Shown in pieces: positions 2,681-37,707 of a stretch of 64,000 nucleotides of DNA. Origin of the DNA: Dipteris shenzhenensis (Eukaryota); the NCBI GenBank assembly GCA_047967505.1, contig CM106538.1. One strand, given 5' to 3'. The position numbers were made by a program, and so were the translations under genes. The notes beneath the pieces were generated by a model. The model ran no database searches and was not told where the DNA came from. It saw nothing but the letters and a program-made list of their open reading frames with translations. Within the stretch, counting starts at the first letter, position 1. Each line of letters begins with the position of its first letter.

Positions 2681-3340
2681 TGTAACGCCTTGCCATATCG
2701 CTAGCAAATACACAATGGACATTAACACTTGCTGATGAATGGGTAAGTACGTCAGCAAAGCCAATTCAAAATCAGGTTCCTCTTGCACTTCAATGGGTCA
2801 AAATGGACAAAGGGTGGTGTGCTTAACCATTGTGGAAGCATATGTGAGAGTCTAAGAGTACAAATCAATTAAAAATGATATATCGCAGAAAGAGACGGAA
2901 GAAAAATGTTCAAATTGATTCCAAATAGGCAGCTCTCGCAAGGTAGATGGCTGCGTAAAAATCACCTAACTCAAATGCACTCTAAGCTGCCATGCACTCA
3001 CTAACAACCTTCCTTGAATGCCATGGAGTTGGGGCATGAGGCCCCCTATTCATAGGCGGGAGGCCACACAAGGTCAGCCCCTATTGGATGCATGTTGGTG
3101 GCGGCCCTTTGGGCTTGAATTCCTCAGCCCATGAGGATCAGCCTATGGTGTGTTCTATTTTGGCTTTTTATTTACAGTTAGATGGGCTTGATGGGGACCC
3201 CCCTGCTGTAGTCATGGTTGTTAAGACACTCGTGTCTTATGATAAGACATTTAAGGCACTTAAGACACGTGTTTGACCTTAAGGCACCTTTAGACACTCT
3301 TTTTTTTATATAAAAAAGGTGTGGTGGGTAGGGTGTAACA
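2681..3340. repeat. Possible LTR (gypsy-like)
   Basis: Begins TGTAACGCC and ends GGGTGTAACA; lies next to a gag remnant. No TSD or second copy found. Confidence 0.35.
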
Positions 3341-3487
3341 ACAAACATTGAGTTTGACTTAACCATGCTATCGTTGATGGTGACTTTGGATCCAGCAGTG
3401 GGAGTGACCTCATTAGATGAATCTTGAGAGCTTTGACTCTTGAGAGTTGAAAGTTTCCTTTCAATTATATGTATTGAGATGTAGATT

Positions 3488-4290
3488 TCATTCATGTCTC
3501 ATGTGATTGAGAGCAAATAGAGAAGGCATTGTAGTGGGATCCTGCATGTGCATTAAGCGTGCCACAGTTGCTGCATGCATGATGTCTTGTATGCCCTTAT
3601 GCTGCTGGGTATTAACCACAGCCTGCATCTTTGGAGTGAGACCAGACCTGTACTTTCTTACCTGGGTCTTCGTAAAGACCTTCTTAAAGGGAGAAATATG
3701 CAAGTATGCATCCCAAAACTTCTGATTATAGGCCGGTATTGTGTCTCCTACATCCGTATGCAAACAGTCCTAGGCAATGAGAACATGGTCTCTAAATTGC
3801 TAAGGCATGAACTGCTTGTAGAAGGCTTTCTTGAAGCCCTTCCACTTCTTTGGAGTAGAACCAGTTGTGGTCTGTGCACTCCACCATGCACTAGCTGTGT
3901 AGAACCAGTTGTGGTCTGTGCACTCCACCATGCACTAGCTGTCCCTGCTACATGTAAACTAACCATGCATAGCTTGGAGGACTCAGAAAAATTCTCTGTG
4001 CCAAAAGTTGCATCAAACTGCTTGATCAATTGCATGGCCTTCTCTGTATGACCATACCTGCCATTTAATGTAGCAAACCTGACAGAATTCCCACCTTTGA
4101 ATTCCTTAGTTTTTGCTTTCATAGCTGCATGCTTTTCCTTAGATGACTTCTTCTTCTTAGCTTCGATGACCCAGAAGAAGAAGATGATGATGAAGATGCA
4201 GAGGTGGAACTCGAAGAAGAGGAAGAAGAACTTGAATCTTTTTGTTGTCCTCGTAACTAGGCTTTTTAGTCTTCCTCGATGCATCCTCTG
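3488..4290 (-). pseudogene. Ty3/gypsy-type gag remnant, frameshifted by a 44-bp tandem duplication
   Basis: Retrotransposon gag-like segments (IKQFDATF...SLHVAGTASAWW; KYRSGLTPKMQAVV...IMHAA) in ORFs 3748-4284 and 3488-3763. Confidence 0.6.
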
Positions 4291-5285
4291 AAGGAAGAAT
4301 AGGAGCTGTACTCAAAGAGCTTTTCTTGCAAACTCCTTTTGAGTTGCTCCAGAGGGAGCTTTCTCTGTCCTTTCCTCTACAAGAGATTCTACCAATTTGC
4401 AAAATAGAGGATCCCTTCGTGCCTCTACTACTTCAGCAAGCAATTCTCTATAAAGCTCTCTTTGTTAGATTGCACGCCCTCTTCATGCCTGACTTGGGCA
4501 GTATCTGCAACTCCCTCATGGGATGTAACCGTCGTCAGGTTTAGCTTAACCATAGGTCTGCCACCTCAGCAGCTTGGCTGGCTGCCACATCAGCATCTCT
4601 GCACAGTTGCCACATCACAAACTGCTACATCAGCACTGATTGCATGCTATGCCATGTGTTAGTGTCACGTCATCGCCTAGTTGGCGGTTGCGACATCAAC
4701 ACCCAGGTGGCATAAGCTTTTTTTTTGTCGGCTCAACAACGGGGATTCATGCCCAATAACGGAGAATTGCTGTGGATTCTTTGCATTTGCAACTTTCTGA
4801 TCATTTGCAGCGTCTCAAGGCTTCAGTTATCATGTGATGCATTTACCCTTGCCCAGTAGATACTGGCGTAGTCTAGATAGTGTCAAGGCTATTAATTGCA
4901 TCGCCCACTTCCTTTGCCCAGCCTTCAACTAGCCTCTCTGATTTGACAAGGCGGACTCACTCACAACCTCCGTTTAGAACCAAAAAGAGAGGCGGCACAT
5001 CCACAATTGAAGCATGATACCCTTTGACTAACACCCGCTTTGCTTCACGCCCATGCAATTTCTGAGAGTGTGCGGTCCGCCTTTTTATGCAAAGGGGTAC
5101 TAAAATCCTACCTTGCGTTATCTCTGTCAGTACACGCGTTTACCTCACAGGCCACTGGTAACTGTGCGCTACAGATGTCCATTAGCATTCGCTTCACCTC
5201 CACAAGCTGGCAGAAGCACTTTGCCGAGCACCCATACAATTCTGGATTGTCTTTGTCATAGAAGACATAAGAATCTTGCGCACAC

Positions 5286-7284
5286 TTTTTTTTTTTTGGT
5301 GAAATCTTTTATTTCTGTGTGGGAAACCTCAAAAAGAGGTGAAAACCCACCAATAAGTACAAAGAGAAAATTTACAAGTAAATCCTTAGAGAGAAAATCT
5401 CATGAGGCAACCAAGTAAAAATTTACATATCAGTTGGAGGAGACTCCAACAAAACATCATCCATTTTCAAACTATTGCCTTGTAAAAATTGATGCGATGG
5501 AGTGACAACGCCATTAATAAAACATAGTTGTTTTTTGCCCTTGTGATTCTTCTTAAGATAAGCGGGTAGCCGAAACTTTTGAACCACAGGATCAAAAACC
5601 TACTGCAACTAGGGATGAAAAGACTCCAAGGAACAAGGAACATTAGGATCCGAGACTGAGAGGCTTTGTAATGGGGCCGGCATATCAACAAGCTTCTCAG
5701 GGGAAGGAACATGAAACTCCACAGAAAAGGAAATATTTGCATCCGGAATAACAGTATCTGGAGCTGAAGGACACTGTAGATTTTCTTCCACTTCATGCAT
5801 AACAGCAGAATTTTGCAGCAGTGAAGAAGAATGTGACAGAACAACTTCAGACGTCGAAGTAGCAGCAAAAACCGGATCACAAAGGACCTGACAATCTGAC
5901 ACTGTAGGTAGTGGATCCGGAACAGATAAAACAGCAAAAGGATTCGAATCTTGAACCAGCTTAGCCTCCTGAAATTTCCTCCAGACCTTAGCAGGTTTGA
6001 AAAAATGCCAGACTTCCTGTGTACTGGAAAAAGAAATAGGAACCGTAGGAACCGGTACAGGAGGAGGAGAACTCTTCAGAACAGGAGCTGGCGAAGAAGA
6101 AGAAGGGCATGCTCTGGCAAAATGACCAAGTTGGTGACATTTATAGCAAGCATTGGAAAAGGAGGCAAAACGAAGAGGAATCCGGAGAGGATGAGAAAAT
6201 CCAAAATCCAGTTCCAGATATGAAGGTATGAGCTGCTCCATATCCCAAAGAACACATATCCGAATATCTTTGCTTGTGACCAGAAAGTCTTGTTTAGGAA
6301 CGAAAAGGACACGGCCCAGCAGACCTGCAAGAGAAGGAACTTACTGAAGAAGTGGAACTGGCAAATCCTTGAGAGTAATCCAAACAGGACAGTTGAGAGA
6401 TTGCGTAGCTTGGAGCAAGATGATCAGGCTGAAGGAGTACGAAGAGAGACCACTGGAGAAGAGACATTTGACAATGGAGTAACAAGCGGAGGTTGTACTC
6501 TTCTCCATTCCTGTCTGAACTTAGATTTCTGTGAAGAAATAGCAAGGGGAGACAGAACCGCCTCCTTAGGAGCTGGTTGAACCATAGAAGAAGGGCAGCT
6601 GCGAGCAAAATGACCCAGTTGCTTACACTTGTAACATGCATTGGGGAATGAAGCAAACTGCAATTTTATGCACAACGGATGAGTAAAGTCAAAATCAATA
6701 TCCAAACAAGCAGGGATAGATTGGGCCATATCCCATAGCACACAGATTCGAATATCTCTGCTCTTGACTACGAAATCTTGCTTGGGAAAAGGCAACACTC
6801 TTCCGAGAAGGGGGGCAATAGAGGAAAGATGAGGAATAAGAGGAAACGACAAAGCTTTGAGGGTAATCCAAACAGGACAGTAATGCAAAAGATTCTGTGT
6901 ACGATTAAATAGGGGATCCCAAGGCATAACATAGGCAAAAAAACCAGCAACAGGAACCCGTGCCATGCTAACCAGCTGATTGAACCAATCAACGTATGAA
7001 CAGGGGCAGCCACAGGAACTGAAGCAGGTGGGATTGACGGTGAAATATGTACGCGAGCAGGAAAAGGAGGGTCTAGAACAACAGCGGCAGAAAGTGATGA
7101 AGTAGGAGGAGAAAACGTGGCTTCAGGCGAAACTGATGCAATAGGAAAAGAAAACGGGGCTTCATGTGGGGTATCACATATAGGGTCAAGCTGGTGGTCA
7201 GGAGCTTCAGAACGGGAAGCAGCAAGAAATGGCGTAGGGGAAAACAGAAGGGTTGCAGGAAGCAGCTCCTCCATGATGGCAAAA
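5286..7284 (-). mobile_element. ORF1-only LINE-like element, copy A (zinc-knuckle module duplicated)
   Basis: Poly(A) tail (T-run 5286-5297); plant L1 ORF1 motifs (YVMPWDP, CPVWITLK.L, CYKCxxxGHxxxxC, present twice); ATG at 7274; no EN/RT between the ORF end (5423) and the tail. Confidence 0.8.
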
Positions 7285-7285
7285 C

Positions 7286-7334
<49 letters not shown>

Positions 7335-7484
7335 CGGCGCAGGGGAAAACGGAAGGGTTGCAGGAAGCAACTCCTCCGTGATGGCAAACCCCCCCCTCCC
7401 CCACACACATACACCCACACACCCACACCCACACACACACGCGCACACACCCACACACCCACCCACACCCACACCCACGCCGCC

Positions 7485-7515
<31 letters not shown>

Positions 7516-7520
7516 ACATA
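7285..7520. repeat. Poly-C/(CA)n microsatellite tracts enclosing a duplicated ~55-bp 5' stub of element A
   Basis: C-runs and CA repeats; AGGGGAAAAC.GAAGGGTTGCAGGAAGCA.CTCCTCC.TGATGGCAAA occurs at ~7236 and ~7341. Confidence 0.9.
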
Positions 7521-9533
7521 TTTTTTTTAATATAGTGAAATCTTATATTTCTGTGTGGGAAACCTCAAAATAGGTGAAAACCCACCAATAAGTACAAGGA
7601 AAAAATTTACAAGTAAAGCCTCAAAGCGAAAGTCATGAGGCAGCCAAGTAAAAAGTTACATATCAAGCTGGAGGAGGATCAAACACAGCATCCTCCAGCT
7701 TCAAATTATTGCTTTGTAAAAACTGATGCAGTGATGAAACCACACCATCAATAAAAACAAGCTGTCCTTTACCCTTGTGATTCTTCTTGATATAGGCTGG
7801 TACCCGAAATTTTTGAATCACAGGTCAAAAACCTGTTGTAACATGGGATGAAAAGATTCTAGTAAAAAAGGTACTTCTGCATCCCGAACAGAAGAAGACT
7901 CTGGCACAGGCATCAAAGGCAAAGGGGCTAAATCAACCTTTGTATCCTCCAACGAAAGAGCTGCATCTGATAAAGTAGAACTCAGCATTTCAGCTTCACT
8001 TTGAGGACCAACTTGAGAAAGAGCAGGGGCAGCATCCTGTATAATCCCCTCTGCAAGGGGCACATCCATATCCTGAGAGGAAGGAGGCTGAAGATGCTCA
8101 ACAGGAGTCGCATCCTGAACTTCTTCAGCAAGAGAAAGAGTGGCCTGTGATTTTTCTACCTTCCTCCAGTAATGCTTCGGAGCAGTAAAAGAAGGCTTAT
8201 CCAACAAAACCTTAGCAGAAACCGGAGGAGAAGGAAGAGTAAACTTCACAGCTGAAGAAGGAGCAGGAGGAGTGGTCATGGAAGTAGAAGGGTAGGCACG
8301 TGCAAAATGACCAACCTGACAACACCGATAATAGGATGTAGGAAAAGAATCAAAATGTAGCCTGATGCGCATTGGATCAGCAAAGCCCAAATCAAGATCC
8401 AGAGTAGATGGCACAGGTTGCATCATATCCCATAAGATACAGAGTCAAACATCACGGGTAGCCTGCAAAAACTCCGGTCTCGAAACATGGAGAGGCCTCC
8501 CCAGAAGCGCTGCAAGAGTTGGCAGAGGCTGAAGAAGAGGCACAGGCAGCGCTTTGAGGGTAATCCAAACCGGACAATGGTTAGAAGAGAGGCAGACGGA
8601 TCAAATAGGGGATCCTAGGGCATCACATAAGCAAAAAAACCCGCTCCAGGAACACCAGCACGACTGACAAGGCGCTCAACCACATCAGTCGAAGAGCAGT
8701 GGGCATAGTAAATTCCTTTGCCTAGAAAGACAAAGGAAGAGATACAATCCGGATCCACTGCAACATCAGTTCAATGACGAAGATGAGCTGAAGATAAAAC
8801 CCTGCCCATAAAATAGAGGCAGACTCCCAATTGCTGAGCGTGACGAAGACCGGAGACCAAAAGGGCAGAATCCAAGGAGCGAACAAGCGGGGAATATGAT
8901 AAAGGAGCTTCTGTGACAGAGGAAGAGCACAATTGGGGAAGAAGATCCAGCTGGGAGAGAAGGACCATCAGAAATATCTAGCTTTGCCGATTTGACTGAA
9001 GGCGAGGCAAACACACCACCATGCTTCTGCCGAAGAAAAGCATGAGTAGTAGGAGTAGAGGCAGAAAGAGGAGAGGCTGAGGCAGAAAAAACAAAGGAAA
9101 CAGGTGTTGAAGCAGCAGGAAGGGAGGAGGAAGATGACACCGAGGGCTGCAACACCGGAACAGAAGGCAAAAGAGGCGCAGGGACAGATGGAGGCTGTAT
9201 AGCCTGTACGGACGGCTATACAATAGGGTTTGCAGAAAGAAAAGGCAGAGAGGAAAGCTGCTGCAGGCTAGAGGCTGTAGGACTTAGTCCCGAGGGCTGT
9301 ACGGAGGATGTAGGAGAGGCAGCAACCTGTACGGACTGCGTGAGAAGAGTAGATGAAGGGTGAGACTGAACACAATAGGGCTGGGACTGTACAAACGGGC
9401 GCGAGAAGGGAGCAAGAAGCTGTACGGACAATACGGATGGGGCTGGGAGGTGAATAGAGGATGACGGAATAGAAACAGAGGGGGACGAAGGGTCGACCAG
9501 GGCTAAGGGGGCTCCAGAGCTCTCCATTGCTCA
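7521..9533 (-). mobile_element. ORF1-only LINE-like element, copy B
   Basis: T-run 7521-7528; 3' end highly similar to copy A; QQLGVCLYFMGR, CPVWITLK and degenerate zinc knuckle; ATG at 9527; several frameshifts. Confidence 0.8.
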
Positions 9534-9558
9534 CCCACCCACCCACACACACTCTCTC

Positions 9559-10692
9559 TGTGACGCTCCAATTTTGTATATGAAATATTTTGGAATATAT
9601 ATCATAGATAGTGTTCAAAAAGGATGGTTTTGATGTTTTGAAGGTTTTTGGAAAGTTTGGTGTTGGTCCAAAAATTTTGGTTTTTGTCCATTATGGTGTC
9701 GGCTGGATTTTGCGGCTTGATTAGAGAGATAATTTGAAGAAATTTTGTATGAGAGAGTTCTAGATCTTGTTGAGTAGAAAAACTTTGTCCTAGTGAAAAA
9801 TTTGTGGTTCACTCGTTTGCATGCTTGTATGGAGGGCAGAAGTTGCTAACAAAGTGGTTTTGAGCTAAAAGAGCATCTAGATTTCTGTGTCAAGAGTTGC
9901 AGGCATTAGACGGAGGTCGAGATGGAAGAATTAGCCATGAAAGGTGAAATGCAAAGGGAAAGAAGAGGGTCCGATCTTCGAGATGAGCTATTGAGCTTGT
10001 CCATTGGATCTACGAGGCAGGCGTGGTGATGCTCCGAACAAGGCCATTTTCATGCCTTAAATTTTTTTTTTTTTTAAAAAGAGAGACGTCGAAATTCCGT
10101 ACGCGTTTGCTATCATAAGCGCATGCTAACAGAAGGTGAAAAGCACACGCATGCTTTTCGAGAAAAGCTGTTTTTTGGCCGATTTTGAAGGTTTTTGGCG
10201 GCTTATTTTGGAGTCGTGAAAGGCTATAAAAGAAGAGGAGATCGTGAGAAGGAGAACATACAATCCAACGCACGCATATCGAGGCTGTACGAAAGAGAAT
10301 AGAAGGCATGTATCTCGAGGTTGCTCGAGCGAAGAGAAGGCACACATATCGAGGTGCTGCGAAAGTGACAATAGCGCACGCAAATCGAGGCAGTGCAAAG
10401 AAGAAGATACGATCAAGATATTTTGAGAGTGAGAGTGAGAGTGAGAGTGTGATTGAGATTTGATCGTTTGATCATCTGATTTGAACATCTTCATGCGAGT
10501 GAGAGTGAGAGTGAGAGTGAGATAGCTCGGGGGTGGACGGGTGGTATCGAGCTCCTTCACGGAGTGATTCTTCTCCGAAATTATTGTAAAGGCTCATCAG
10601 TTTGATTCATACTGCAATCTCTCTTCTTTTTCATTGGTGATTATTATCTTGCTACAATTTTGATCGTGATTGTGAAAGAACGGTGCCTGACA
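9559..10692 (+). repeat. 5' LTR of the gypsy element
   Basis: Direct repeat of 15535-16666 with scattered substitutions and small indels; contains (GAGTGA)n tracts. Confidence 0.97.
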
Positions 10693-10694
10693 AG

Positions 10695-10706
10695 TGGTAT
10701 CAGAGC
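10695..10706 (+). promoter_or_regulatory. Primer binding site (tRNA-iMet)
   Basis: TGGTATCAGAGC 2 nt after the 5' LTR. Confidence 0.95.
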
Positions 10707-10715
10707 ACGGTTTCG

Positions 10716-13700
10716 ATGGCAGACAACGAGGCAATTATGAAGAAACTAGAAATACAAGATTCATTGATTTGAAGGCTAACCATGGAATTAAACAGATTGT
10801 CCAAAGGAAAAGACGTAGCGGATGATGGAGCTAGTAGTGGTGCTGCTGGCAGAAATTTAGAAGATGAAGAGGTCTATGTCGAGCTTGGTGCCGGGGTACC
10901 GAGCCGAAGGAGATAAAGAGGTGAGGAAGATGTTGCCGAAACTGCTCTTTTGCAAGTTTTTAAGAAAGCGAAACTCTCTGAATTTGATGGTGAGAAGAAG
11001 ACCGGGGAAGATTTGGAAGTGTGGCTTGAAGAACTTGAAGATTTCTTTGCCCTACGAGAGTTTGATGAAGCGGGAAAGGCTAAGATCGCGGCACTACAGT
11101 TACGTGGAGTTGCAAAACTATGGTGGAAGTCGCATGTGCAAATCCGACAACGTCAAGATCAACCCATCACATGGGCTGAATTCAGAACTGCAGCTGAAAA
11201 GAGGTATTGTTCTCCACATTATTATATGGAAAAGAAGATGGAGTTCTATAATTTTAAGCAAGTACAAGAGGGAAAACATAATCTATCTGTGGATGAGTAT
11301 AAAGAGAAGTTCCTGCGATTACATAAGTACGCACTGTGATGGGCTGAATTCAGAACTGCAGCTGAAAAGAGGTATTGTTCTCCACATTATTATATGGAAA
11401 AGAAGATGGAGTTCTATAATTTTAAGCAAGTACAAGAGGGAAAACATAATCTATCTGTGGATGAGTATAAAGAGAAGTTCCTGCGATTACATAAGTACGC
11501 ACCTGAGGTCACAGGTGAAGCTCTTACTCATAAATTTGTGGAAGGGCTTAAGGAAGATCTTTTATATATGATGAAAGGAACAGGATCAAGTGATTTCTTG
11601 GATGCTGTGGCTAAGGCCGAAAACTTTGAAAAGATGGAAGAATATAACCTAAGAAAGATAGCAAAATCAAGGTTCATTCCAACAGGTCATTGTCTTCAAG
11701 GGTCACAAGGTTCAGGTATGCCTCAACGAAAACCTGATTATTCAAATATGCCTAGATTTCAAGAGAGGAGTAGCCAACCTGGGTACAATCAAGTGGGAAG
11801 GCCAAATAACCGAAATCAGAATCAAAATCAAAATCAAAGAAATAAAGGAGTTTCAAATAAGAAAACCCAAGAAAACGCACCTTGGAAAAGTGATTCAGAG
11901 TTTATTGAACGGGCAAGAAGATTGGGATTATGTTTCCGATGTGGTGAGCAAGGTCACCGAACATTTGAGTGCCCGAATAAAGCAAAATTTAATTTTATGA
12001 AAGGACCAATGATGGGAGCAAAGACGAATTAGACGAATCCAACCATCGACGAAGCGGTGGACAAAGGTATGTGCTTGGAACCTTTGAAATGTATGGCATC
12101 TTCCACAACTCATATGCATGCGTCTGTGATTAAAGTGATGGGGAAAATTGGGAATCAAAACATAAGTTTTCTTATTGACTCTGATAGCACTCATTGTTTT
12201 ATATCCCCGAAATTCCTTAAGACTCTAAACGTAGAAATTAGGGATCAAGTCAGAAGACCAGTCCAACTTGCTAATTGAAAATTACATTATACTCAAGGGC
12301 TTCTAGAAAATCTTTCCTTCAGTTTAGCACAGAGGAAGAGTAAGGGAGATTTTTATGTTATTGAGATGGGGAAGTGTGACGCTATTATTGGAATGGATTG
12401 GTTAAATGTAAACAAAGCAGTTATTGATTGTGGAGAAAGGACCGTTAGTTTTCTTAATGAAGATGGCAAAGATAAAATTATTCAAGGAGAAGAAAGAGAT
12501 AGTAAAGCTTCTCTCATATCAGCCATGAAATTGCTGCGAGGAGTAAGACAGGGCTGTGACACATTTCTCGTCTTTGTTGATAAGTTAAAGGAGGGAAGTG
12601 AAGATGAGACAGTACCACACTATGTTACAAAACTCCTTGAAGAATTTTCCGATGTGTTTCTTGATGATTTACGTGGGATGCCACCGCCTAGACATCTTGA
12701 CCATGCTATAGAGTTAGAACCAGGCACAAGTCCTTATTGTCGGGCTCCCTATAGATTTAATGTGGATGAACTAAAGGAGTTAAAGCTTCAACTGGATGAC
12801 TTGTTAAAGAAAGGGTTTATAAAGGCTAGCGTTTCTCCTTGGGGTGCTCCAGTCTTATTTCAAAAGAAAAAGGATGGAACTTATAGGCTTTGCATTGACT
12901 ATAGAGGATTGAATCGGCATACTATAAATAATAAATACCCTCTACCTCACATTGATGAATTGTTGACTCAATTGAATGGTGCCACAGTGTTCTCTAAAAT
13001 TGATTTGCGATCTGGTTACCATCAGATTCGTATTGAGGAGGAGGAGGACATTCCTAAAACTGCTTTTAGAACTCGCTATGGCCATTATGAATTTACTGTG
13101 CTTGCTTTTGGCTTGACCAATGCACCCGCTACCTTCATGTGTCTAATGAATGATGTATTCCGTGAGTATTTAGATAACTTCATTCTGGTTTTCTTGGACG
13201 ACATTTTTGTACATTCCAAGAATGGGGAACAACATGAACAACATCTAAGGAAAACACTTGAAAAGTTACGGGAGCATAAACTTTATGGGAAAAAGAGCAA
13301 ATGTTTCTTCGCTAAAGACAAGCTTGTGTATTTGGGTCGTGTGATTTCAAAAGATGGTATTCATATTGATCCTGACAAAGCAAGGCTTATTTCGGAGTGG
13401 CCTAGACCGAAAAATGTAAGGGAGGTAAGAGGCTTTATTGGCTTAGCACAATATGAGAGAAAACATATCAAAGATTTCTCAAAAATAGCCTCTCCACTTA
13501 CTGATTTGACAAAACTTGACAAGCAGTTTATATGGACGGAGAAGTGTCAACAAGCTTTTGATACTATAAAAGACAAAGTGGCTGAAAATTATATTCTCAA
13601 GATACCCGAGATGGGTAAACCTTTTGTAATGACATGTGATGCTAGTGGTACCCGACTTGGATGTGTACTTTCTCAAGATGGTCGTGTAGTGGAATATGAG

Positions 13701-15507
13701 TCTCGAAAATTAAGGAAGCATGAAGAGAACTATCCCACGCATGATCTCAAATTGGCTGCCGTTGTTCATGCATTGAAACATTGGAGACACTTTCTACTTG
13801 GTGTAAAGTTCGAACTTCGAACAGATCATGAAAGTTTGAAGTACCTCTTCACTCAACCATTATTGAATAATAGGCAAAGAGGATGGATGAATCTTCTTTC
13901 CGAGTATGACTTTGAGATTAAGTACATTGAGGGAAAGGAGAATAGGGTGGTTGATGCTTTAAGTAGAAGACCTTTCGTGAATGCCATCACCCTTATTCGT
14001 TCCGATCTTGCAGAAAACATTAGAAATGAACTTGAACATGATGTTTTTTATGCACCTATTCTTCAAAAGATTGCTCAAACACCTTGTGAAAAGATTGAAG
14101 GAAAATTTCATTTGGTGAATGGTAATTTATATTGCCATGATAGACTTTGTGTACCATGTGATTCACCTTTGAGATGGAAAATCTTGTATGATTGTCATGA
14201 TGCTCCATTTTCGGGACATGTTGGATATAACAAAACATACAGCAAGGTTCGAAAATCATTTTATTGGCTTGCACTAAAGCGTGATGTTCGTCGTTATGTC
14301 CAAGAATGCTTACAATGTCAACAAGTGAAGGTGGAATAACATAAGATGCCTGGTAAGATGCAACCTTTGGATATACCTTTCAGGAAGTGGGAATCAATAT
14401 CCATGGGTTTTATTACTAAACTACCTATAGCTCGAGGGGGATATGATACCATTTTTATCGTCGTTGATCGTTTTACCAAAATGGCACATTTCTTTCCTAT
14501 GAAAAAGACTGATGGTGCTCTTGAGGTAGCTAAGTTGTTTGTGAAAGAAATTTTCCGATTGCATGGGATGCCTAAAAGTATTGTGTCAGATAGGGATTCC
14601 AAATTTACTTCTCATTTTTGGAAGGCCACATTCAAAGCAATTGGGACGGAGCTTAAGATGAGTACAGCTTTCCACTCACAAACAGATGGAGAAACTGAAA
14701 GGGTTAATCACGTACTTGAGGATATGCTTCGAATGTATGTTAATGAGAAGGAAACAAATTGGACAGAATTCCTATCCTTAGCCGAGTTTGCTTATAATAG
14801 TTCCTGGCATAGCTCCATTCAAATGTCTCCATTTGAAGCCATGTATGGTCAGAATTGCCACACTCAATAGTTCCTGGCATAGCTCCATTCAAATGTCTCC
14901 ATTTGAAACCATGTATGGTCAGAATTGCCACACTCCTGTGAATTTTTCGGATCCTCAAAATAGAGTCGAAGTGTCTAGACAAATGCTTGAGAGAATGGAT
15001 GAGGAAGTGAAACTGATTCGGAAGAGCATTCAAAGAGCACAAGACAGGCAAAAGCAATACTATGATAAGAAGCGGTCTTTCCGTGAATTTCAGATTGGGG
15101 AGATGATATTTCTGAAAGTAATACCTAAACGCAGTAATCTAATCCTTCGGAAGGATAGAAGGCTCGCACCTGGTTTCGCAGGATCTTTTAAAATCTTAAA
15201 GAGGGTGGGAACGCTTGCATATCAACTTGAACTGCCTGAGAACATAAAAGTGCATCCTGTTTTCCATGTCTGTCTATTGAAATCTTATGTTGCCAACCCA
15301 ACTCATATTTTGCAGGACAAGTCTAGGATCATGGAGGATGGGACTTTGAAAGTCGAACCTGAATATATATTGGATAGGAACACGAAGCGGCTTAGGAATA
15401 GAACAATAGAAGAAGTTTTGGTTAAGTGGGATGCTTATCCTGTAGAAGATGCTTCATGGGTAGACTTAGATGCCTTACTTACTGAGTTTCCTTCATTTAA
15501 ACTCTGA
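10716..15507 (+). pseudogene. gag-pol polyprotein with chromodomain integrase, disrupted
   Basis: One frame from ATG 10716: gag zinc knuckle CFRCGEQGHRTFEC, protease LIDSDSTHCFI, RT VFLDDI, RNase H CDASG, integrase SDRDSKF, chromodomain VLVKWDAYPVEDASW. Interrupted by in-frame stops and two tandem duplications. Confidence 0.95.
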
Positions 15508-15534
15508 GGACAGAGTTCCTGAAGAGGGAACGGA

Positions 15535-16464
15535 TGTGACGCTCCAATTTTGTATATGAAATATTTTGAAATATATATCATAGATAGTGTTCAAAAAGGA
15601 TGGTTTTGATGTTTTGAAGGTTTTGAGAAAGTTTGGTGTTGGTCGAAAAATTTTGGTTTTTGTCCACTATGGTGTCGGCTGGATTTTGCGGCTTGATTTT
15701 GAGTTGGTTAGAGAAATAATTTGAAGAAACTTTGTATGAGAGAGTTCTAGATCTTGTTGGGTAGAAAAACTTTGTCCTAGTGAAAAATTTGTGGTTCACT
15801 CGTTTGCATGCTTGTATGGAGGGCAGAAGTTGCTAACAAAGTGGTTTTGAGCTAAAAGAGCATCTAGATTTCCGTGTCAGGAGTTGCAGGCATTAGACGG
15901 AGGTCGAGATGGAAGAATTAGCCATGAAAGGTTAGATGCAAAGGGAAAGAAGAGGGCCCGATCTTCGAGATGAGCTATTGAGCTTGTCCATTGGATCTAC
16001 GAGGCAGGCGTGGTGATGCTCCGAACAGGGCTGTTTTCATGCCTTTAAAAAAAAAAAAAAAGAGACGTTGAAATTCCGTACGCGTTTGCTATTATAAGCG
16101 CACGCTAAAAGCAGGTGAAAAGCACACGCACGTTTTTCGAGAAAAGCTGATTTTGGAGGTTTTTGGCGGCTTATTTTGGAGGCGTGAAAGGCTATAAAAG
16201 AAGAGGAGATCGTGAGAAGTAGAACACACAATCCAACGCACGCATATCGAGGCTGTACGAAAGAGAAGAGAAGGCACGCATCTTGAGGTTGCTCGAGCGA
16301 AAACAAGGCACGCATATCGAGGTGCTGCGAAAGTGACAATAGCGCATGCAAATCGAGGCAGCGCAAAGAAGAAGATACGATCAAGATATTTTGAGAGTGA
16401 GAGTGAGAGTGAGAGTGTGATTGAGATTTGATCGTTTGATCATCTGATTTGAACATCTTCATGC

Positions 16465-16496
<32 letters not shown>

Positions 16497-16666
16497 TAGC
16501 TCGGGGGTGGACGGGTGGTATCGAGCTCCTTCACGGAGTGATTCTTCTCCGAAATTATTGTAAAGACTCATCAGTTTGATTCATACTGCAATCTCTCTTC
16601 TTTGTCATTCGTGATTATTATCTTGCTACAATTTTGATCGTGATTGTGAAAGAACGGTGCCTGACA
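15535..16666 (+). repeat. 3' LTR of the gypsy element, preceded by PPT GAAGAGGGAACGGA (15521-15534)
   Basis: Direct repeat of 9559-10692. Confidence 0.97.
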
Positions 16667-16693
16667 CTCTCTCTCTCTCTCACAGACATGCAC

Positions 16694-18620
16694 TTTTTTT
16701 AGTGAAACCATATATTTCTGTGTGGGAAACCCCAGAAGAGGTAAAAACCCACCATATAGTACAAAAGTAAAAAGTTTTACAAGTAGGCCCCTTGAAAAAG
16801 CCAGGTAGCTAACCGGAAACTAGAAAAGTGAAAATAATCACAAATCACCAGGGGAGGCATCTAGTAGGATATCCACCACTGTGAGATTATTTGCTTGCAA
16901 AAACTGTTGTAGAGGAACCAGGCAGCTAACTGGAAACTAGAAAAGTGGAAATAATCACAAATCACCAGGGGATGCATCTAGTAGGATATCTACCACTGTG
17001 AGATTATTTGCTTGCAAAAACTGTTGTAAAGGAACCACATCTCCATCAATAAAATGAAGGTATTTTTTACCTTTGTGATTCTTCTTGAGATCTCGAAATT
17101 TTTGAATCACAGGGTTAAAAACCTGCCGCAACCAGGGATGGAAAGAGTCCAAAGAAAAAGTAGAGGCAGGCACCAGATCCGTCATGGATGAGGAAAAGTA
17201 GTATCCAGTCCAAGAGAAGTATCCATATTAACAACCACAGTCTGAGTAGCTTGCTCTTGCAAATCCACAGTTGGTTCCACAAGGGCATCATGAGCTCGAT
17301 CTGAAGAAGAAAGATCCACATGTTTATGTTGCTCTGGCAAATCTGTATTCTCATCACCTGCATTATGTCCATCTGAAGGAGATATATCGACATGTAACTC
17401 AAAAGATTGTAATTCAGAGACCGGAGAAGGTGGGCGAGACTCCACTCCTTCAAAATGAGACTGCTGAATTGAAACTATCTCTGGAGGGTCAGCAACATGA
17501 AAGGGAGGATATACTGATAGAGAAGCTTTCTCTTGAGGATGGACCCGTTGCCATTCCTTTTTGTGTTTATGCTGGTCTAACTTAACTAAATGGAGAGGAG
17601 GAGAAACTTGAGGGAAAGGCAAACTGTTGTGAGATTGAGGTAAGAGCAAGGGGCAGCACCGAGCTGCCTACATTTATAACACGCATTTGGGAAAGAAGCA
17701 AACTTCAGAGGAATGCGGAAAGGATGCACCATACCAAAATCAATATCCAAGCAGGAAGGTATAGGTTGCTCCATATCCAAAGTATGCAAACACGGATATC
17801 TCTCTTCAGAACTAGGAAATCTTGCTTCGGGAGATGCAGAATCTTCCCCAACAACGCTGCGATAGAGGAAATATGTGGGAGAAGAGGTATCGGCAATGCT
17901 TTGAAAGTAACCCAGACTGGGCAGTAATGCATGAGGTTCTTTGCCGGGTCAAAAAGAGAGTCCCATGGCATAACATAAGCAAAAAAGCCTGCACCATGGA
18001 CCCTTGCCTGATTTACCAAACTATACACTGTCTCCACATCAACACAGCGAGCAAAGTAGAAACCTTTGCCCAAAAAAACAAAAGAAATAATTCGATTAGG
18101 ACCAACTGCTGCAGAAGACCACGCACGCAACTGAGAAGGAAAGAGGATACGTCCCATGAAGTAGATGCAAATTCCGAATTGCTGCACTTCAGAGAGACTC
18201 TCAATAAGCGAATCTGGAGATTGAGCCCGATTTAGTAACAGACCTGAATTGACCATCTCTGAAACTGAGTCTTCACACAGCCGTCGAAGCAGGTCCCGTT
18301 GCAAGGAAGTAGAAGAACTGTGGCTGTTATGAAGCTTAGGCTGAGAAGATACAGAGAAAGAAACGTGTTTCTTTCTTGCGACAGAAGCAGGATTTGACCG
18401 AAAAAGAAACGGAGCGGCGACGGCTGGCGATGGGTTTACGGGACCAAATGGAGCTTGCGAAGTAGAAGCAGAAAGCTGCCAAGGAACATCTGAAGGTTGC
18501 GAAGTAGAAGTAGAAAGCTGCAAAGGAACGGAGGTGGGCTGGCGTGAGGCAAAGGAAGACGAAAAGGACATAGGCAACGAACGGGAGGAAACATCGAGTT
18601 CCATCTTTCCCTTTCTACCT
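16694..18620 (-). mobile_element. ORF1-only LINE-like element, copy C
   Basis: T-run 16694-16700. ORF 17705-18628 has a DUF4283-like region (FLGKGFYFARC, YVMPWD, CPVWVTFKALP), followed by CYKC and the shared C-terminal domain (16955-17185). ATG at 18604. Confidence 0.82.
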
Positions 18621-18875
18621 GCACACACACTTTTTTTTTTGTGAGAAGAAATATTTTATTGCTGTAAAAGAATTACATTCATAGTTATTGCAAAAGCGAA
18701 GTAACTACTACTCCACTGAAAATCTCAGTATAAGCTATATATACATCATGATCAATCAAATGAGTCTGAAAGCAATCATAAAATGATTGCCGCAGAGATT
18801 GTCTGAAAAAAACAAAAGATGGAGAAGTAGGATCACCAAAGACTCTATGATTTTGTCCATCCATAGAGTCCACAG

Positions 18876-21825
18876 TGTTGGTAAACTGAAAGGAAAGCAT
18901 GGAGTGAACACAAACTAAGAATTCTTGCTTATGGAATGAAGAAAGGTGAGGTCCTTAAGTAGGCACCTCTTACATGATCACTGACATCATTGATGACCTC
19001 TGAGCTCCACAATCATCTCCTCAATCTGCTCCTAGATTCTCTCAATCATCCTATGTGGCTTCTACCACCACCTAATAGTGCTGATGGGCACCTAATTGTG
19101 CCTCTAGCACACACACATAGAAACCAAGGTGTGCCTGGGGCATACACCTTGAGATATCCCAACATACCTCCCCTCAAGGGAATGCCTCAGGCTATGTCAA
19201 GGATACAGTTAGCACAAGGTGTCACATGCCATCTCATGGTGGTCATGGATCTATCAATGGCTAGGATCTCAAGCTAGCAAGGGTTCCCATGGGTGTAAGG
19301 TAAACAAAAGGGATACAAAAGACCTTCCAATGGTTATCTCCCCTTCGTGTACATGCACACAATGTCTGCAGGAGGTACAATGGAGCAAAAACACTTACAC
19401 ATGGCCTACATCATATGGTGACCAGAGGTGTTTACAAAACACACAATAGTTTATTTCATTCATTTTGGGAGGACTATCCAGGCTGAGTACCTTGACTCAA
19501 CAAAAAAGAGAGATCTGGAGCATACATGGAGATGATTCAAAAAGCATAATCTTCATAGGATGCCTCATCTTGTGGAGGCACATCAACTGAAAGTAGATTG
19601 GCATTTTCTGACTTTGAAGTTGCTTCCTTTTTGGCTGTACAAAACTTTTCATGATGATTGTTCTTGCCAACAGTGTTTGCATGGATTGATCTTGAAGCAG
19701 TCTTTTGAGAGGTGATTAGTCTTCCCACAATGATTGCAAGGTGAAAACTTGCCCTTTTGGATTTTTATGGCATAGGCTGTGTCATTTCCTTTCCGGAGTT
19801 CCATGTGCCTTTCTTCTTCTTGAAGAGCAGAGATAAGACCTTCAAGATTAGGATTAGGAAGATTTTTCAAAGTGGTAACAACATGATCATAATCTTCAGG
19901 CATACTCTTGAGCAACACTGCCATAGCATCATCTGTAGTGTTAGGAGAGTTGATAGAAGCAAGTTGAGGCATGAGACTCCACATGTAATTGACATGGGCA
20001 GCCAAAGGAGTGCCACTAACCATCTTCAATTCAAAGAAAGCAATCTTAAGTGACAATTTTGAGATGTGAGAGCTAGCACCAAAAATAATATCAAGCTTCT
20101 GCCAAGCTTTTGAAGAAGACTCTAAGTCAGAGATGTGATGAATATAGTCATCTCCTAAGGCAAGAGCAATGATGCCATAGGCTTTCTCCTCTCTAGCAGG
20201 ATCTCTTGCCAGGTGTGTCGGAGTTGAGGATTCTCCAGCATTGGAGGCTGTTGAAGAAGAAGTTGAAGCCGGTTTCACAAGCCCCCAGAGGTTTTCCCTC
20301 ATTAATGCAAACTTGACCTTCATGTGCCATGTGTGGAAACCCTTACCATTGAACTTATCGATATTCAAGATGGTAGCCATGAGGGTCTAACCCAGAATGG
20401 GCAGTGTCTACCTCTTACAAGGCAAGAAAGAGTTGAAGAGCTTCAAAAAACAAGCATTTAGAGTAGCAAAGGCTTGCAACCAAAATCCATACTACAAACC
20501 AATGATGTTTTCACTTGCATGCTTCATAGAGGTGACTAAATGAAAGTATTCCAAGCAAATCCAGGTATAGCAACTTAAAAGAAAGTTGTAGCCACAGTTG
20601 TACTGATGCTTTTCAAAATTTTAAAACCTTAGAAATGCTAAAGTAGCATCTAATGTAGCATCACACTCACAACCTTGCCAAAACTGTCCAAAACAAAGGC
20701 CTGAACTTGGAGGGCTTGTATCTCACTCTTCAAAGCAAAGAAAAGAGGGCTTTCTGAAGCAAAAGAAAGCTCATATACCAGAGAAGATTCAGCACAGAGG
20801 TTGGGCGAAATGGCGTGCTGTTTTGCCCGGGGGAGTTGCTGCAGGCTGAACCTGAGTTTTGACGATTTCTCATTTGTTATTGAACCAAATGAGCTGAAAA
20901 ATGACTCAAAATGTTCGTCTTGAGGTCGCCCATCTACTCCTAAGAGGGCTCAAGCAATGGTGCAGCAGGCAGGGAGTATTTTGCAATAGAAGAATGAGGA
21001 AAAAATGCGCTGTTTGGAGAATGGCAGCCAGCAGAGACGTTTTTTTTTCAATTTCTTGCAGGTGGAGGTTCGCCCAAACGAGGGGTATCTCCAGCAGGAA
21101 GGGCTTGGAGAATGGCGGAGAATTGAGGGAGAACAAGCTTTAGCAAGATTTGGGAAGAAAGAGAAGAAATGGTGAAGATGAAGAAGAAGAAGATGGAGAA
21201 GAAGATGATGTGGCACAAGTGGGCTCAAGGAGGATCAAAGTGCTCTGATACCATGTTGGTAAACTGAAAGGAAAGCATGGAGTGAACACAAACTGAGAAT
21301 TCTTGCTTATGGAATGAAGAAAGGTGAGGTCCTTAAGTAGGCACCTCTTACATGATCACTGACATCACTGATGACCTCTGAGCTCCACAATCATCTCCTC
21401 AATCTGCTCCTAGATTCTCTCAATCATCCTATGTGGCTTCTACCACCACCTAACAGTGCTTATGGGCACCTAACTGTGCCTCTAGCACACACACATAGAA
21501 ACCAAGGTGTGCCTGGGGCATACACCTTGAGATATCCCAACATATATCTCAAGGTGTATGCCCCAGGCACACCTTGGTTTCTATGTGTGTGTGCTAGAGG
21601 CACAGTTAGGTGCCCATAAGCACTGTTAGGTGGTGGTAGAAGCCACATAGGATGATTGAGAGAATCTAGGAGCAGATTGAGGAGATGATTGTGGAGCTCA
21701 GAGGTCATCAGTGATGTCAGTGATCATGTAAGAGGTGCCTACTTAAGGACCTCACCTTTCTTCATTCCATAAGCAAGAATTCTCAGTTTGTGTTCACTCC
21801 ATGCTTTCCTTTCAGTTTACCAACA
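18876..21825 (-). mobile_element. Non-autonomous gag-only Ty1/copia element carrying an extra inverted LTR
   Basis: 3' LTR 18876-19164, 5' LTR 21254-21542, PBS (GCTCTGATACCA 21242-21253), PPT adjacent to 19165, inverted LTR 21544-21825; TSD CACAG at 18871-18875 and 21826-21830. Confidence 0.93.
19537..20380 (-). pseudogene. Copia gag with two zinc knuckles (frameshift in the second)
   Basis: IDKFNGKGFHTWHMKV, AYGIIALAL, LLKSMPEDYDHVVTTL, CNHCGKTNHLSKDC; no pol downstream. Confidence 0.88.
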
Positions 21826-23906
21826 CACAGTGCCCAGTAGCGCACCCAAACAAAAAATAAATCAAAATCCTGTAGAGCTGGATGAAAACCAAATAACCAG
21901 AAGAACTTGCTAAAAGTAACAGTAGGAAATCTCGCTCGAAGTCCCTGTCGAATGAGAGCGAGGAAATCACAAGTGTGTGGACAGTGCCAAAAGATGTGAA
22001 GCACAGAGATTCACCAGGATGTAGACATTTGTGGCAAACAGTCGAAGCAATATTTCTATGCGCGAGTAATTGCCCAAATGGAAAAATGCCAAGTAGGACT
22101 CGCCAAAGGAAAAGCTGTTGCCGAAGAGGGACTTTATAATGCCAAAGGAGATGCAGCCGCTTTCTCCACCACTTTAGTAGGCAATCCATATGCCAAACAG
22201 AATTTGCTCTGTCAGAAATCCAAGGCGGAAGCAACAACACTTTATACATAGAAGGCACTGTGATATGTGAGAGCTTCAAAGGACGGGCTGAAGAGGAAGA
22301 AGAATGTAGAGTCCAATCCTCAAGCCTATCTTGACGTTCCAAACGAGGTACCGGCAAGAAAGGTTGAAGCATTTCGAAAATTTTATGCCATAAAGGACGA
22401 TAATGAGCTCCCAAACCATATTTGCTAGCAGCAGTAGAAAAAGATAAAAGAGTGCCATCATCCTGAAGTACATCCGCCATAGAAGAAATGCCTTTGAAAG
22501 ATATAAAATAAGAACGCCTGGGTTCTTGTATAGCCAAAGGAGGGTGGAATACTTTGGACCAATAAATACTCTCAGCCCTCAAGGAATTTCCCGACAAAGA
22601 ATCCCTGCCATGCCATTCTAAGTGGGATAAAATATGCTTCCAATCAAGAAGCAAACGAGAGACAAAAGGGTAGTCTCTGATCTTGCCTTGAATAGAGCCA
22701 AATAGAAAATCCCACTGTGTAGGCTGCCAATGTCCAAAAGTAGAAGTATCAATATGCAACAAAAGAGAGCGGATCATGAAAGCCCAAGGCTGATCCCCTT
22801 GCATAAACTGCAACATCATTTTAACCCTGTGAGCAAGTATATACATTTGAATATTGAGTATGTTCAGACCCCTGTGCATCTTTGGAGAGCATAGAATATG
22901 CACAGAGAGTAATCTGAGACTTTTCTTGCCATTTTTTGAACACCAGAAAATCTCCATGATAGCAGACATAAAGGAAACCAGATCTGCCTTAGTGAACATG
23001 ATGAGAGGCAGAGAGAATTCTATGTAAGCTATTAAAATGGATTGCGTTATTCGCAATCGAACATGTAATGGCCAAGTTGTAAGCTTCCAAGGCCACAAAA
23101 GACTTTGTCAGTCTTTAGCATGCAACGGCAGTAGCTTTGATTTCTGAAAATTGACATGAAGACCAGCAGCCAAACCATAGGTAGAAAGAGCCTGCATAAT
23201 CATGGAGAGATCGCTTTGAGTATTTTTTGGGGTAAAGAAAGAATCATCAGCATATGCTTGAGCGATCATGCTATGGCTGCCAGGAATTTCCAATCCGTGC
23301 AAAGGTGGTCCATATATTGAAGCATTGGATGAGTGGCTATGGCAAATAGTAAAGCACTGAGGGGACATCCTTGCCGAACAGAACAACCAAGAGTCCAGGT
23401 TGTAGAAATATCCCCTGAAAGTATGCAGGCAGCTTTAGTATCTTGATATAGCCAATTGATAACTTGCTGCATATTTATGCCAAATCCCAAGGCCTGCATA
23501 GTTAATGAAATAAAGTCCCACTTAACAGTATCAAAAGCTTTGGCAATATCAACTTGCAATAGCAAAACATCCTGCTGCTGCATATATTTGGCATATTCAA
23601 TTCCAACATAAGCATTAGCAATGTTATCTGTGATATGCGTACGAGGAACAAAACCATATTGCGCAGGATGCAACCCATCATGTAAATAGCCTTTTAGCCG
23701 ATTAACAATCATTTTGGTAGTAAATTTGTAAATGACTGGCATAAGCGTGATAGGTCTCCAATCAGTCAAAGGTTCACAAATTTGCTTTTTTGGAAGGAGT
23801 TTAACAAGACCTCTCTTCCATGTGTCTGGCATTTTTTGTTTTAACCCTCTTGGCATAAGCCAAGCCTTGTTGACCAAAGTGACCACGCTCTGGCCGAAGT
23901 TAGCTC

Positions 23907-25563: not shown

Positions 25564-25592
25564 GATGGTGATTAAAGCTCACTGACGAGCAA

Positions 25593-28472: not shown

Positions 28473-30099
28473 GAAACTAGCTTGGGGGTGAGTTTTCTTC
28501 TAACAAGATCGTCCTGCGTGATCCACAAGTCTCCCACTGTGTCAGACATAGGAAAGGAACATCTAGTGAGTACTAGTATGGCGATAAATGGTCAATGGAC
28601 ATATCTTGTGATTGGAACCATTTGGAGACTCACATAGAGGATAAGAGGGCCCTCCATGAGGGTCTCTTAATCCATCCAAACTGTCTAAGGTGGTCAAGAT
28701 ATGTAATGATATGAAGTGATGCATCTGTATGAAGGGGTCTCCTTGTCTATAAAACATCAAAAAGGCATATAAGACAAGAATTTGAAGTACATTATCCCAT
28801 GTAGGAAAACTAGAGATCTCTAGCGCACATCCAAAATATGTAGCTGAAAAATGATACTAAAAATATACCTCGGCATTGGAGTATATCCATGAGATGGGCT
28901 AGGGTCCTTGGAGCCCACTCGTGTCTTTGAAACATGTATGAGATCTGCATGTCACCCTCTGGGTTACTCCATGCGTGTCACTCGTGGACATCGTGACATA
29001 GTTTGTCATGAGGTAGTCCGGAGTCATGAGGCAAGTAGATGTGGCCTGAGCTATAAAGGACCATGTCGAAAAAGCCGTAGTCAAGCAATCAATGGTATCC
29101 ATTTTGCATAGTATCCAGGGGATCTCATCAGTACATGCTCATTTGTTTCCACCGTATGCATGCCATAGAGATTGCACAGCCTCAAGTCTTGGTAGTGTCA
29201 TGTGGCTGCAATTCTCATCTTGCCTTGATCTGATGAGGTCTAGAGCTGTCCATGGCTATCTATATTGCATGTGAGAGTGCATTGGTAGGAACATTGATGA
29301 AAGAAAAGTGGTAGGGAACTTAGTGAAGAGCCTATGCAACTGAAGACAGGACGGGTGTGAAGCAACTCTCTTTCATTCCATGGAAACGTTTACCAGTTCA
29401 GCATGCATGGTCATGCCTCAGATGGCCAGGAGTAACGTTCATGAAAGCAAAAGGAGAAAAAAAAACAACAACCAGCAATCACCATAATTCAATTAGTTCT
29501 ATAGATAAGGTCGGGATTACCTATGGGATTAGACTAGCAATATGGGCTCCAATAGAAATAGAGCAAATGCACAACGCCAGACCATGTACCAGGACCACTA
29601 TGACTTGAGATGATACCCTCAACAGGCCACAAACAAGCACAAAGACACCAGGAAGTCTCTCAACCGAGATGGCACAAGTGAGACGATGAACAAGACACAG
29701 TCAGACGGGACAATGCACATCTGTGGTACCACAAGCAATAGGAATGAGCCACAACTCCTGTAGATCATCCAAGATCCTCTAGACTTCAGTCGAACAGGTC
29801 TTCACCCTTCCTTGTCCACACGCATGGGCAGCTTCCCTATCAGCGTTGTCTTCTCGTACGCAGCAACCTCTCCTCAATGTATGAGCAGTCTCCTGCGCAA
29901 TCCTTTGGCATCTGCTCCTCAAATTCTGATTCACCTCAAGAACAAGTGATCAGCAGCTCTTCAAATTCCAACGATAGAATTCCAGCGAAGGGGGGGCAAG
30001 CTTTGTACGTGTGCCTCAAGCAAGCAAAGCTCTCTCTCACAATCAGCGCAGAAGGCAGCGTAGACCACCAGCGATGTGCAATCAGCGCACATCTCCTCT

Positions 30100-36090: not shown

Positions 36091-36339
36091 GCGGGATCAT
36101 CTGCTAATCGGCGATAGAGTGCTGTCGGCTACTCACGGGTGCGGCTATGGCACGTCTCTTGGTCATAGCTCGCGCCTAACCAAGGCTACCATGATCCTTG
36201 TCAGTCGGGCTCTGACTCTAAACAGGGAGGGGATATCCCCAAGTGTAATCTGTGTGTCAACCCCCTGTTTGAGCTGTTAGGTCACTAGCTCTGGGTCACG
36301 GTCATGTTGAGGCCTTGTCTCATGGGGGTCCATGTGATC

Positions 36340-36720
36340 TAGCTGAAAAAACTCCGTGATAGAGCTCTGAGAGGGATCATCCAAGGAAAAAGTTTGCTCC
36401 TGTCTCCGTGCTCAAAGTATCCTCTCGTGGTGTCTGAGTACCTCATGAATGAAGCCTGCCCAACATCGCTGGTCTGGGTAGCAGAGGAATCGGGCCAAAA
36501 TCCCATAGCTATCTCTGAAGAGGCAGTAGAAACGCCCTCGGATCTCATAGTAAACATGACACCTGAAGATGAAGTGCTCCTCTGTCTCAACCTCCTGCAT
36601 GTCACATAATGTGTGCATATGCACCTCTCCTTGGGTAGTCGCTCTACTTTGCCACTCTCGATACGAAGTCTATGTAAAGAGACCCGAAACTGCCCAATAG
36701 AGATCCTGAGTGAGAGAGGG
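36340..36720 (-). mobile_element. LINE 3' fragment (C-terminal CCHC domain)
   Basis: HRLRIESG...CTLCDMQEVETEEHFIFRCHVYYEIR. Confidence 0.75.

Positions 36721-37670: not shown

Positions 37671-37707
<37 letters not shown>

Follow-up and report, generated by a model that had tools for sequence, protein, structure and literature searches.

A head-to-tail array of ORF1-only LINE copies joined at GT-rich sequence in Dipteris shenzhenensis

A 64,000-nucleotide (nt) stretch of the Dipteris shenzhenensis genome (NCBI GenBank assembly GCA_047967505.1, contig CM106538.1), hereafter the window, carries three polyadenylated elements of about 2 kb (E1, E2, and E3) next to the 3′ part of an L1-type long interspersed nuclear element (LINE), E4, which bears open reading frame (ORF) 2. 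With moderate confidence, E1–E3 are taken to be dead copies of a land-plant family of non-autonomous LINEs that encode ORF1 only and borrow the ORF2 enzymes of a GT-preferring L1. The evidence comprises the anatomy of the elements, purifying selection on their ORF, a junction common to all four elements, and relatives of their C-terminal domain in other assemblies.

Organization of the array

Once a gypsy retrotransposon is removed, E1–E3 and E4 form one contiguous minus-strand array in which each element follows the tail of the one before, as seen by reading of the sequence and self-BLAST. A first-pass annotation of this DNA had recognized the same arrangement, and the boundaries of E2 and E3 are now placed at 7520 and about 18616. 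From 5′ to 3′, the minus strand consists of E4, 14 GT-rich bases, E3, a GT/GA spacer, E2, a GT/G spacer with a stub, (GT)16 G18, E1, 8 GT-rich bases, and unique DNA. Nothing separates the elements except GT, GA, and G tracts and one 57-nt copy of the E1 5′ end. The features of the array are listed below.

5278–5285, minus: 3′ copy of the 8-bp target-site duplication candidate of E1, GTGTGCGC, adjoining the poly(A), with unique DNA after it
5286–7284, minus: E1, ORF1-only and chimeric, with module a (6966–~6590), module b (~6394–6100), C-terminal domain (~5632–5426), 128-nt 3′ untranslated region (UTR), and A12
7285–7333, minus: (GT)16 + G18 tract immediately 5′ of E1
7334–7390, minus: stub, a 57-nt duplicate of the E1 5′ end with 89% identity (50/56 aligned bases)
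7391–7519, minus: GT/G spacer from the E2 poly(A) to the stub, containing the 5′ copy of the E1 8-bp duplication candidate (7441–7448)
7520–9533, minus: E2, ORF1-only, with ATG at 9527, decayed DUF4283-like region and knuckle, C-terminal domain (~7865–7666), 133-nt 3′ UTR, and interrupted A-tail
9534–9558, minus: GA/GT tract preceding the E2 5′ end
9559–16666, plus: gypsy long terminal repeat (LTR) retrotransposon, a later insertion into the (GA)n part of the E3–E2 spacer, outside the half-LINE family
16667–16693, minus: E3 3′ flank, with an 8-bp duplication candidate (16686–16693), then a GT/GA tract
16694–18616, minus: E3, ORF1-only, with ATG at 18604, DUF4283, knuckle, C-terminal domain (~17155–16958), 117-bp tandem duplication (16801–17037), and A7
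18617–18630, minus: (GT)3 and the 5′ copy of the E3 8-bp duplication candidate (18617–18624, 7/8 match), immediately behind the L1 poly(A)
18631–23890, minus: E4, 3′ part of an L1 ORF2 (reverse transcriptase (RT), zf-RVT), with A10, truncated within the RT at ~23890; candidate partner lineage

The gypsy LTRs (9559–10692 and 15535–16666) are 4.2% diverged, and the element is flanked by a 5-bp GAGAG duplication. With regard to E4, the earlier description of an ORF2-bearing L1 at 18631–23890 holds for an RT-bearing 3′ part, but this part is cut inside the RT and split by an insertion of ~2.95 kb (18876–21825), a gag-only element of copia type. The array is interstitial, lying within a 64-kb window of transposable elements (TEs), and an exon of a Vps26 gene (43249–43512, plus strand; Pfam 5.6e-29) is found 25 kb off.

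In the copia-type element within E4, gag is the one coding part seen. Its direct LTRs (18876–19192 and 21254–21568) are 3.2% diverged, and an inverted LTR copy (~21544–21825) creates a 572-bp palindrome. A 5-bp CACAG duplication flanks this outer, inverted copy, so that the element is joined to its target on either side by the same LTR end.

Coding content and selection

E1–E3 each contain one decayed ORF, broken by stops and frameshifts. Its layout comprises a Ser/Pro-rich start that cannot be aligned between copies, a DUF4283 domain, a CCHC knuckle, a linker (with the motif W-[RQ]-[RK] in all four modules), and a C-terminal domain of ~70 aa. In Pfam, DUF4283 is above the cut-off in E3 (5.9e-9) and zf-CCHC twice in E1, while the DUF4283/knuckle region of E2 was assigned via alignment to E1 and E3, three E2 fragments giving no Pfam match at E 0.1 on their own. 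Mammalian L1 ORF1p is of the Transposase_22 type, a domain that Pfam does not find in E1–E3, which places them outside mammalian HAL1. DUF4283 is described as the dominant ORF1 domain of plant L1s (PMC5203782). E1 is a chimera of two zinc-knuckle modules without the N-terminal half of DUF4283; modules a and b stand as far apart (synonymous divergence, dS, 1.8) as either does from E2 and E3, and they are joined without an A or GT remnant, which points to a template switch or a deletion spanning two neighbors.

No endonuclease (EN) or RT was detected in E1–E3 by six-frame reading and Pfam, as had been proposed before, and no ORF2 start lies within their 3′ UTRs. A LINE ORF1p is thus encoded and ORF2 is absent between ORF1 and poly(A), as in ORF1-present non-autonomous LINEs. 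The distance from ORF stop to tail is 128 nt in E1, 133 nt in E2, and 257 nt in E3, the last because of the 117-bp tandem duplication at the ORF end. The first ATG is found 4–17 nt behind a GT/G tract, within the ~20 nt given in the first-pass annotation. That annotation also had each element encode an L1 ORF1-type protein, which is true of the domains; however, no copy retains an intact ORF, E1 is composite, and the C-terminal domain had been overlooked. In E4, Pfam detects RVT_1 (4e-22) and zf-RVT (8e-5), and neither an endonuclease nor a further ORF1 was found beside it in the 143 of 181 flanking frames (at least 65 aa) that were scanned.

For codon analysis, alignments were built on DNA alone and then read in frame. 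The ratio of nonsynonymous to synonymous divergence (dN/dS) is 0.13–0.29 in eight of nine block comparisons, the ninth being saturated (synonymous and nonsynonymous difference proportions, pS 0.76 and pN 0.23). Mismatches are more frequent at third than at second codon positions in all nine (P 7e-3 to 5e-8), and four comparisons read out of frame give dN/dS of 0.70–1.27, so the signal of selection is tied to the frame. Between copies, identity is 61–72% in the DUF4283/knuckle blocks and 57–64% in the C-terminal domain. Since dS among copies is 0.7–2.3, compared with 3.2–4.2% between the LTR pairs of the nested elements, the source elements diverged long before landing here. E1–E3 are therefore several old lineages under purifying selection and not local duplicates; both the earlier judgment that the array is no recent tandem duplication and the dN/dS below 1 put forward as a check are borne out at the array itself.

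Junctions and target site

Runs of at least 7 A occur 39 times on both strands of the window, and GTG or TATGTG comes next in four of them, which are exactly the four element tails; GTG begins at 1.5% of positions. The junction described in the first-pass annotation is therefore present at all four tails and at no other A-run. E3 is abutted at both ends by an 8-bp pair with one mismatch (18617–18624 and 16686–16693), and E1 together with the stub is flanked by a perfect 8-mer (7441–7448 and 5278–5285) that occurs three times in the window, both strands included. Both duplication candidates open with GTG, and E3 was inserted 6 nt behind the E4 tail. Transposition as a unit is indicated by poly(A) in all three elements and by 8-bp target duplication candidates in two of the three.

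The outermost 3′ flank has just 8 GT-rich bases, followed by unique DNA, and no microsatellite. The (GT)n and G tracts of E1 are located inside its duplication candidate and so may have been created by the insertion instead of being microsatellites that were already there. On these grounds, a short GTG(T/C) motif seems to be the target, with long tracts added or expanded at the 5′ junctions; such a strand-asymmetric target would give the copies their common direction. The (GT)n targeting proposed earlier thus survives as a GT-type junction common to E1–E3 and E4, and need not be a preference for long microsatellites as such. According to PMC4494074, a LINE counts as microsatellite-specific when >20% of its copies are flanked by the repeat; the local junctions that fit a GT target are 4/4, all at one locus.

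Conserved 3′ end and relatives of the C-terminal domain

The 3′ end is better conserved than the DUF4283/knuckle blocks, with 110/122 identical bases (90%) between E1 and E2, and 71/87 (82%) with E3 over the last 90 nt. The last 71 nt are predicted to form one common hairpin (z −2.0 to −2.2 in all three copies), and comparison with Rfam gave no match. An 18-nt motif just 5′ of the tail is common to E4 and E1 (16/18; 1 of 2000 shuffles as good) and to E4 and E2 (15/18; 7 of 2000), which is suggestive of a relationship between the 3′ ends of E1–E3 and E4. In monocots, a plant L1 and its passengers with a common conserved 3′ hairpin have been reported (PMC3472496).

A profile of the three C-terminal domains yielded 13 matches at E ≤ 0.001 among 1.84 billion cluster representatives. 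One of them (P0013), a repeat protein, was kept out of the alignment, and the real relatives comprise 12 clusters with 26–46% identity to E3. The ten that were looked up come from short contigs of Logan or ENA assemblies and include no named protein. All outside proteins are 61–158 aa long, and 6 of the 12 end 48–55 residues past the core motif, as do the window copies (50–53). These clusters counter the case, named beforehand as a possible refutation, that the copies exist only here as decayed local duplicates. In P0010 and its cluster mate P0020, a frame shift past the domain leads into a stretch like the E3 3′ end, followed by KNKK-VCVC, which can be back-read as an A-run and a GT repeat, and by a final stretch that, of 1020 window tiles, matches the E4 3′ end best (tblastn E 0.003). 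This suggests the same tail, junction, and neighbor at an independent locus.

The C-terminal domain is not part of the E4 ORF2, as its profile matches within the window are E1–E3 only. No Pfam family is common to more than 1 of 20 members, and no PDB sequence matches. AlphaFold models are poor (predicted local distance difference test, pLDDT, 61 and 55), with no fold match above Z 2.7. An Atlas lead to QRICH1 (PF25561; score 0.91, 153/256 features) was not confirmed, since Pfam assigns it to 0 of 20 members and the models are too poor for fold comparison; a resemblance to the corresponding domain of mammalian ORF1p, which may still hold, likewise gains no support from such models. Word-indexed searches, which covered longer but not near-length proteins, found no 278–2000-aa protein with the domain, which is weak evidence, and scans of viral contigs and prokaryote genomes gave no positive result. 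One metagenome match (L001) was rejected, as it arises by chance antisense to a bacterial gene. That bacterial contig carries, at 3325–9038 (minus strand), genes that by eye are ftsA-ftsZ-like beside large, repetitive, Cys-rich surface-type proteins.

Proposed mechanism and alternative explanations

In the proposed mechanism, a polyadenylated RNA of ~2 kb would be translated into an ORF1 protein with DUF4283, a CCHC knuckle, and its own C-terminal domain. This protein would coat its own RNA, and such binding in cis would keep the ORF under selection. The RNA would then take endonuclease and reverse transcriptase in trans from an E4-type L1, probably via the conserved 3′ end, and the E4-type enzyme would nick short GTG(T/C) sites, leaving duplications of ~8 bp. 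As each insertion would duplicate and lengthen a strand-asymmetric target, new copies would settle next to older ones and point the same way, resulting in head-to-tail arrays.

Several observations weigh against this proposal. The array evidence comes from a single locus, and the endonuclease of E4 is missing from the window, so its target choice cannot be read from E4. E2 has no clean target duplication, its flanks being too repetitive, and E4 has none, its 5′ end being lost. For E1 and E2, folds of 111 nt fall short of significance (z −0.5 and −0.6), and compensatory changes occur in 0 of 17 hairpin pairs. The 18-nt motif is not significant between E3 and E4 (12/18; 146 of 2000 shuffles), and beyond it, alignment of E2 with E4 over their final 90 nt is scarcely better than that of shuffles (score 23, compared with 15.9±6.3). 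Because the rest of the 3′ end cannot be aligned and the motif includes an AATAAA-like signal, possibly convergent, the link to E4 stays suggestive. With respect to the outside proteins, 6 of 12 end elsewhere (2 shorter, 4 longer), and the 3′-end stretch of P0010, a protein-level reading, ranks 3 of 1020 window tiles, behind two unrelated overlapping ones.

The foremost alternative, which we judge rather unlikely, is that complete L1s gave rise to E1–E3 through retrocopying of transcripts that contained ORF1 alone, their polyadenylation having occurred early, within the spacer that follows ORF1. Selection would then have acted on the complete masters, and no self-standing half-LINE lineage would exist. 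It predicts dN/dS below 1 and the E4-type junction equally, and an AATAAA-like signal is present ~15 nt 5′ of the tail; moreover, 10 of the 12 outside clusters are read without DNA context, leaving room for an ORF2 behind, and since ORF1 and ORF2 are separate proteins, the lack of 278–2000-aa proteins with the domain says little here. However, the end points of three lineages with dS above 1 coincide to within a few nt, P0010 appears to end at the same place, and that end bears a hairpin and a motif also present at the 3′ end of E4 itself, as would be predicted for a LINE tail and not for a spacer. Less probable again is a two-component LINE, in which the E4 lineage itself has lost ORF1, leaving ORF1-only and ORF2-only elements in mutual dependence. 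Long-lasting selection on a free ORF1 would fit, both kinds adjoin here and apparently in P0010, and ORF2-only families are reported among Drosophila telomeric elements (PMC13534243). Yet a common target alone accounts for the adjacency, E4 is cut inside the RT, and the flanking frames scanned contain neither EN nor a further ORF1.

L1TD1 is a mammalian host gene derived from a LINE ORF1, and processed pseudogenes of a comparable host gene family, passively copied by an L1, would also present a single ORF, short UTRs, poly(A), and purifying selection. Plant L1s are reported to copy mRNAs (PMC3472496). We nevertheless regard this origin as highly improbable: three to four lineages in one 7-kb array fit a mobile family better, E1 combines two of them (module a vs b), and no named protein is among the ten outside clusters looked up. 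Decayed local tandem duplication of one broken LINE is the least credible reading and already largely refuted. The copies are indeed all adjacent and broken, with no further copies in the 64-kb window, but their divergence is codon-biased and deep, their duplication candidates are separate, their N-termini cannot be aligned, and they have relatives outside.

An extension of the borrowing of L1 enzymes by an ORF1-only family, which seems unlikely to us, would be a long-lived plant lineage, equipped with a new C-terminal domain of its own, acting together with an ORF2 lineage that may lack ORF1. Its insertions would add (GT)n/G-run heads that serve as the next targets, and its copies, nearly without a 5′ UTR, would be transcribed from the conserved 3′ end of the upstream neighbor, forming HeT-A-like arrays away from telomeres.

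Other features of the window

A second decayed LINE at 34186–36110 (plus strand), unrelated to the array, has endonuclease-like and RT-like frames, with YVDD by eye and no Pfam match at 1e-3; it looks RTE-like. At 55328–56955 (minus strand), long open frames of 178 and 291 aa, counted from ATG, have no Pfam match; a D-x-x-H motif there may resemble that of P-element/THAP9-type transposases. Copies of ~195 bp at 37411–37602 and 37683–37881 (plus strand) are 71% alike, each opening at (GA)12–14 with GT repeats between, and form another small microsatellite-linked tandem; nearby, 36517–37336 recurs at 38739–39112. Two facing copia-type elements (25588–33987) are 80% alike over 1.5 kb, and their 3′ part recurs at 285–1214. 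At 63305–64000, an inverted repeat of ~700 bp (77%), composed of 26- and 45-bp subrepeats, continues past the window end.

Comparison with known systems

ORF1-only LINE derivatives have been recorded from mammals, flies, mosquitoes, and Dictyostelium, and our literature search, made outside Repbase, subscription journals, and supplements, found no plant ORF1-only LINE family. If the proposed reading is true genome-wide, the array would document in plants a protein-coding LINE parasite and an L1 endonuclease with sequence preference, add a new domain to those of ORF1, and offer a natural system for asking why ORF1 outlasts the loss of ORF2 and how LINEs seed microsatellites.

HeT-A, HAL1, and Ag-Sponge are classed as ORF1-present non-autonomous LINEs (PMC5786205). 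HAL1 is defined as L1-derived and encoding ORF1p only, and is described from mammalian lineages with repeated independent origin (PMC5753468, PMC13756887). E1–E3 resemble it as non-autonomous L1-clade derivatives with ORF1p only and a poly(A) end; compared by description, they differ in that their ORF1 is of plant type (DUF4283 + CCHC) and bears a further C-terminal domain, that their structured 3′ end is conserved, and that they are stacked head to tail with a fixed GTG junction. In Drosophila, ~40% of 396 telomeric families are reported to be ORF1-only, lying head to tail and all in one direction among partners that carry ORF2 (PMC13534243), and the 3′ UTR of the upstream copy is reported to promote the next (PMC5537684). 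The present array is similarly composed, whereas HeT-A belongs to the Jockey clade, occupies chromosome ends, and has a long promoter-bearing 3′ UTR; the interstitial position, 128–133-nt 3′ UTR, target duplication candidates, and GT spacers set the array apart from telomeric elements. TRE5-A.2 of Dictyostelium is described as lacking ORF2 and moved in trans to specific sites (PMC5633606). Like E1–E3, it and Ag-Sponge of Anopheles are ORF2-less LINE derivatives mobilized in trans (in our case by proposal), and TRE5-A.2 retains the site-specific integration of its partner; hosts and clades are different, however, the TRE5-A target is ~50 nt upstream of tRNA genes, and E1–E3 have no known close parent.

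With regard to targeting, the apurinic/apyrimidinic endonuclease (APE) LINEs MinoAg1 (AC), Waldo (ACAY), Kibi (TC), and Koshi (TTC) insert into microsatellites and are described as all animal and autonomous (PMC3812793, PMC4494074). Microsatellite-specific LINEs of this kind are marked by a sequence-specific APE and an RT of the R1 or Tx1 clade. Insertion at a simple-repeat motif appears to be shared, (AC)n being equal to (GT)n, but the array has plant L1-type ORF1/ORF2 and a target of maybe a few bases. LINE1-1_ZM, a stringent monocot L1, has a 3′ hairpin in common with ZmSINE2/3, with compensatory changes, its partners being non-coding short interspersed nuclear elements (SINEs) (PMC3472496); a conserved 3′ hairpin of L1 type with non-autonomous partners would be common to both cases, whereas the partners in the array are protein-coding. 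Celine of poplar is reported as a targeted plant L1 with both ORFs, a DUF4283 ORF1, a centromere target, and nested clustering (PMC11288735), thus resembling the array in its ORF1 and its nested clustering, which may be targeted here as well, but not in its two ORFs and centromeric location. Plant TEs at large are also reported to use microsatellites as landing pads (PMC12477314). What is apparently new here is the combination of a plant ORF1, the C-terminal domain, the GT junction, and interstitial arrays, while the kind itself is known from HAL1 and HeT-A. The array probably works like HAL1, HeT-A, and TRE5-A.2 but is a member of none of them.

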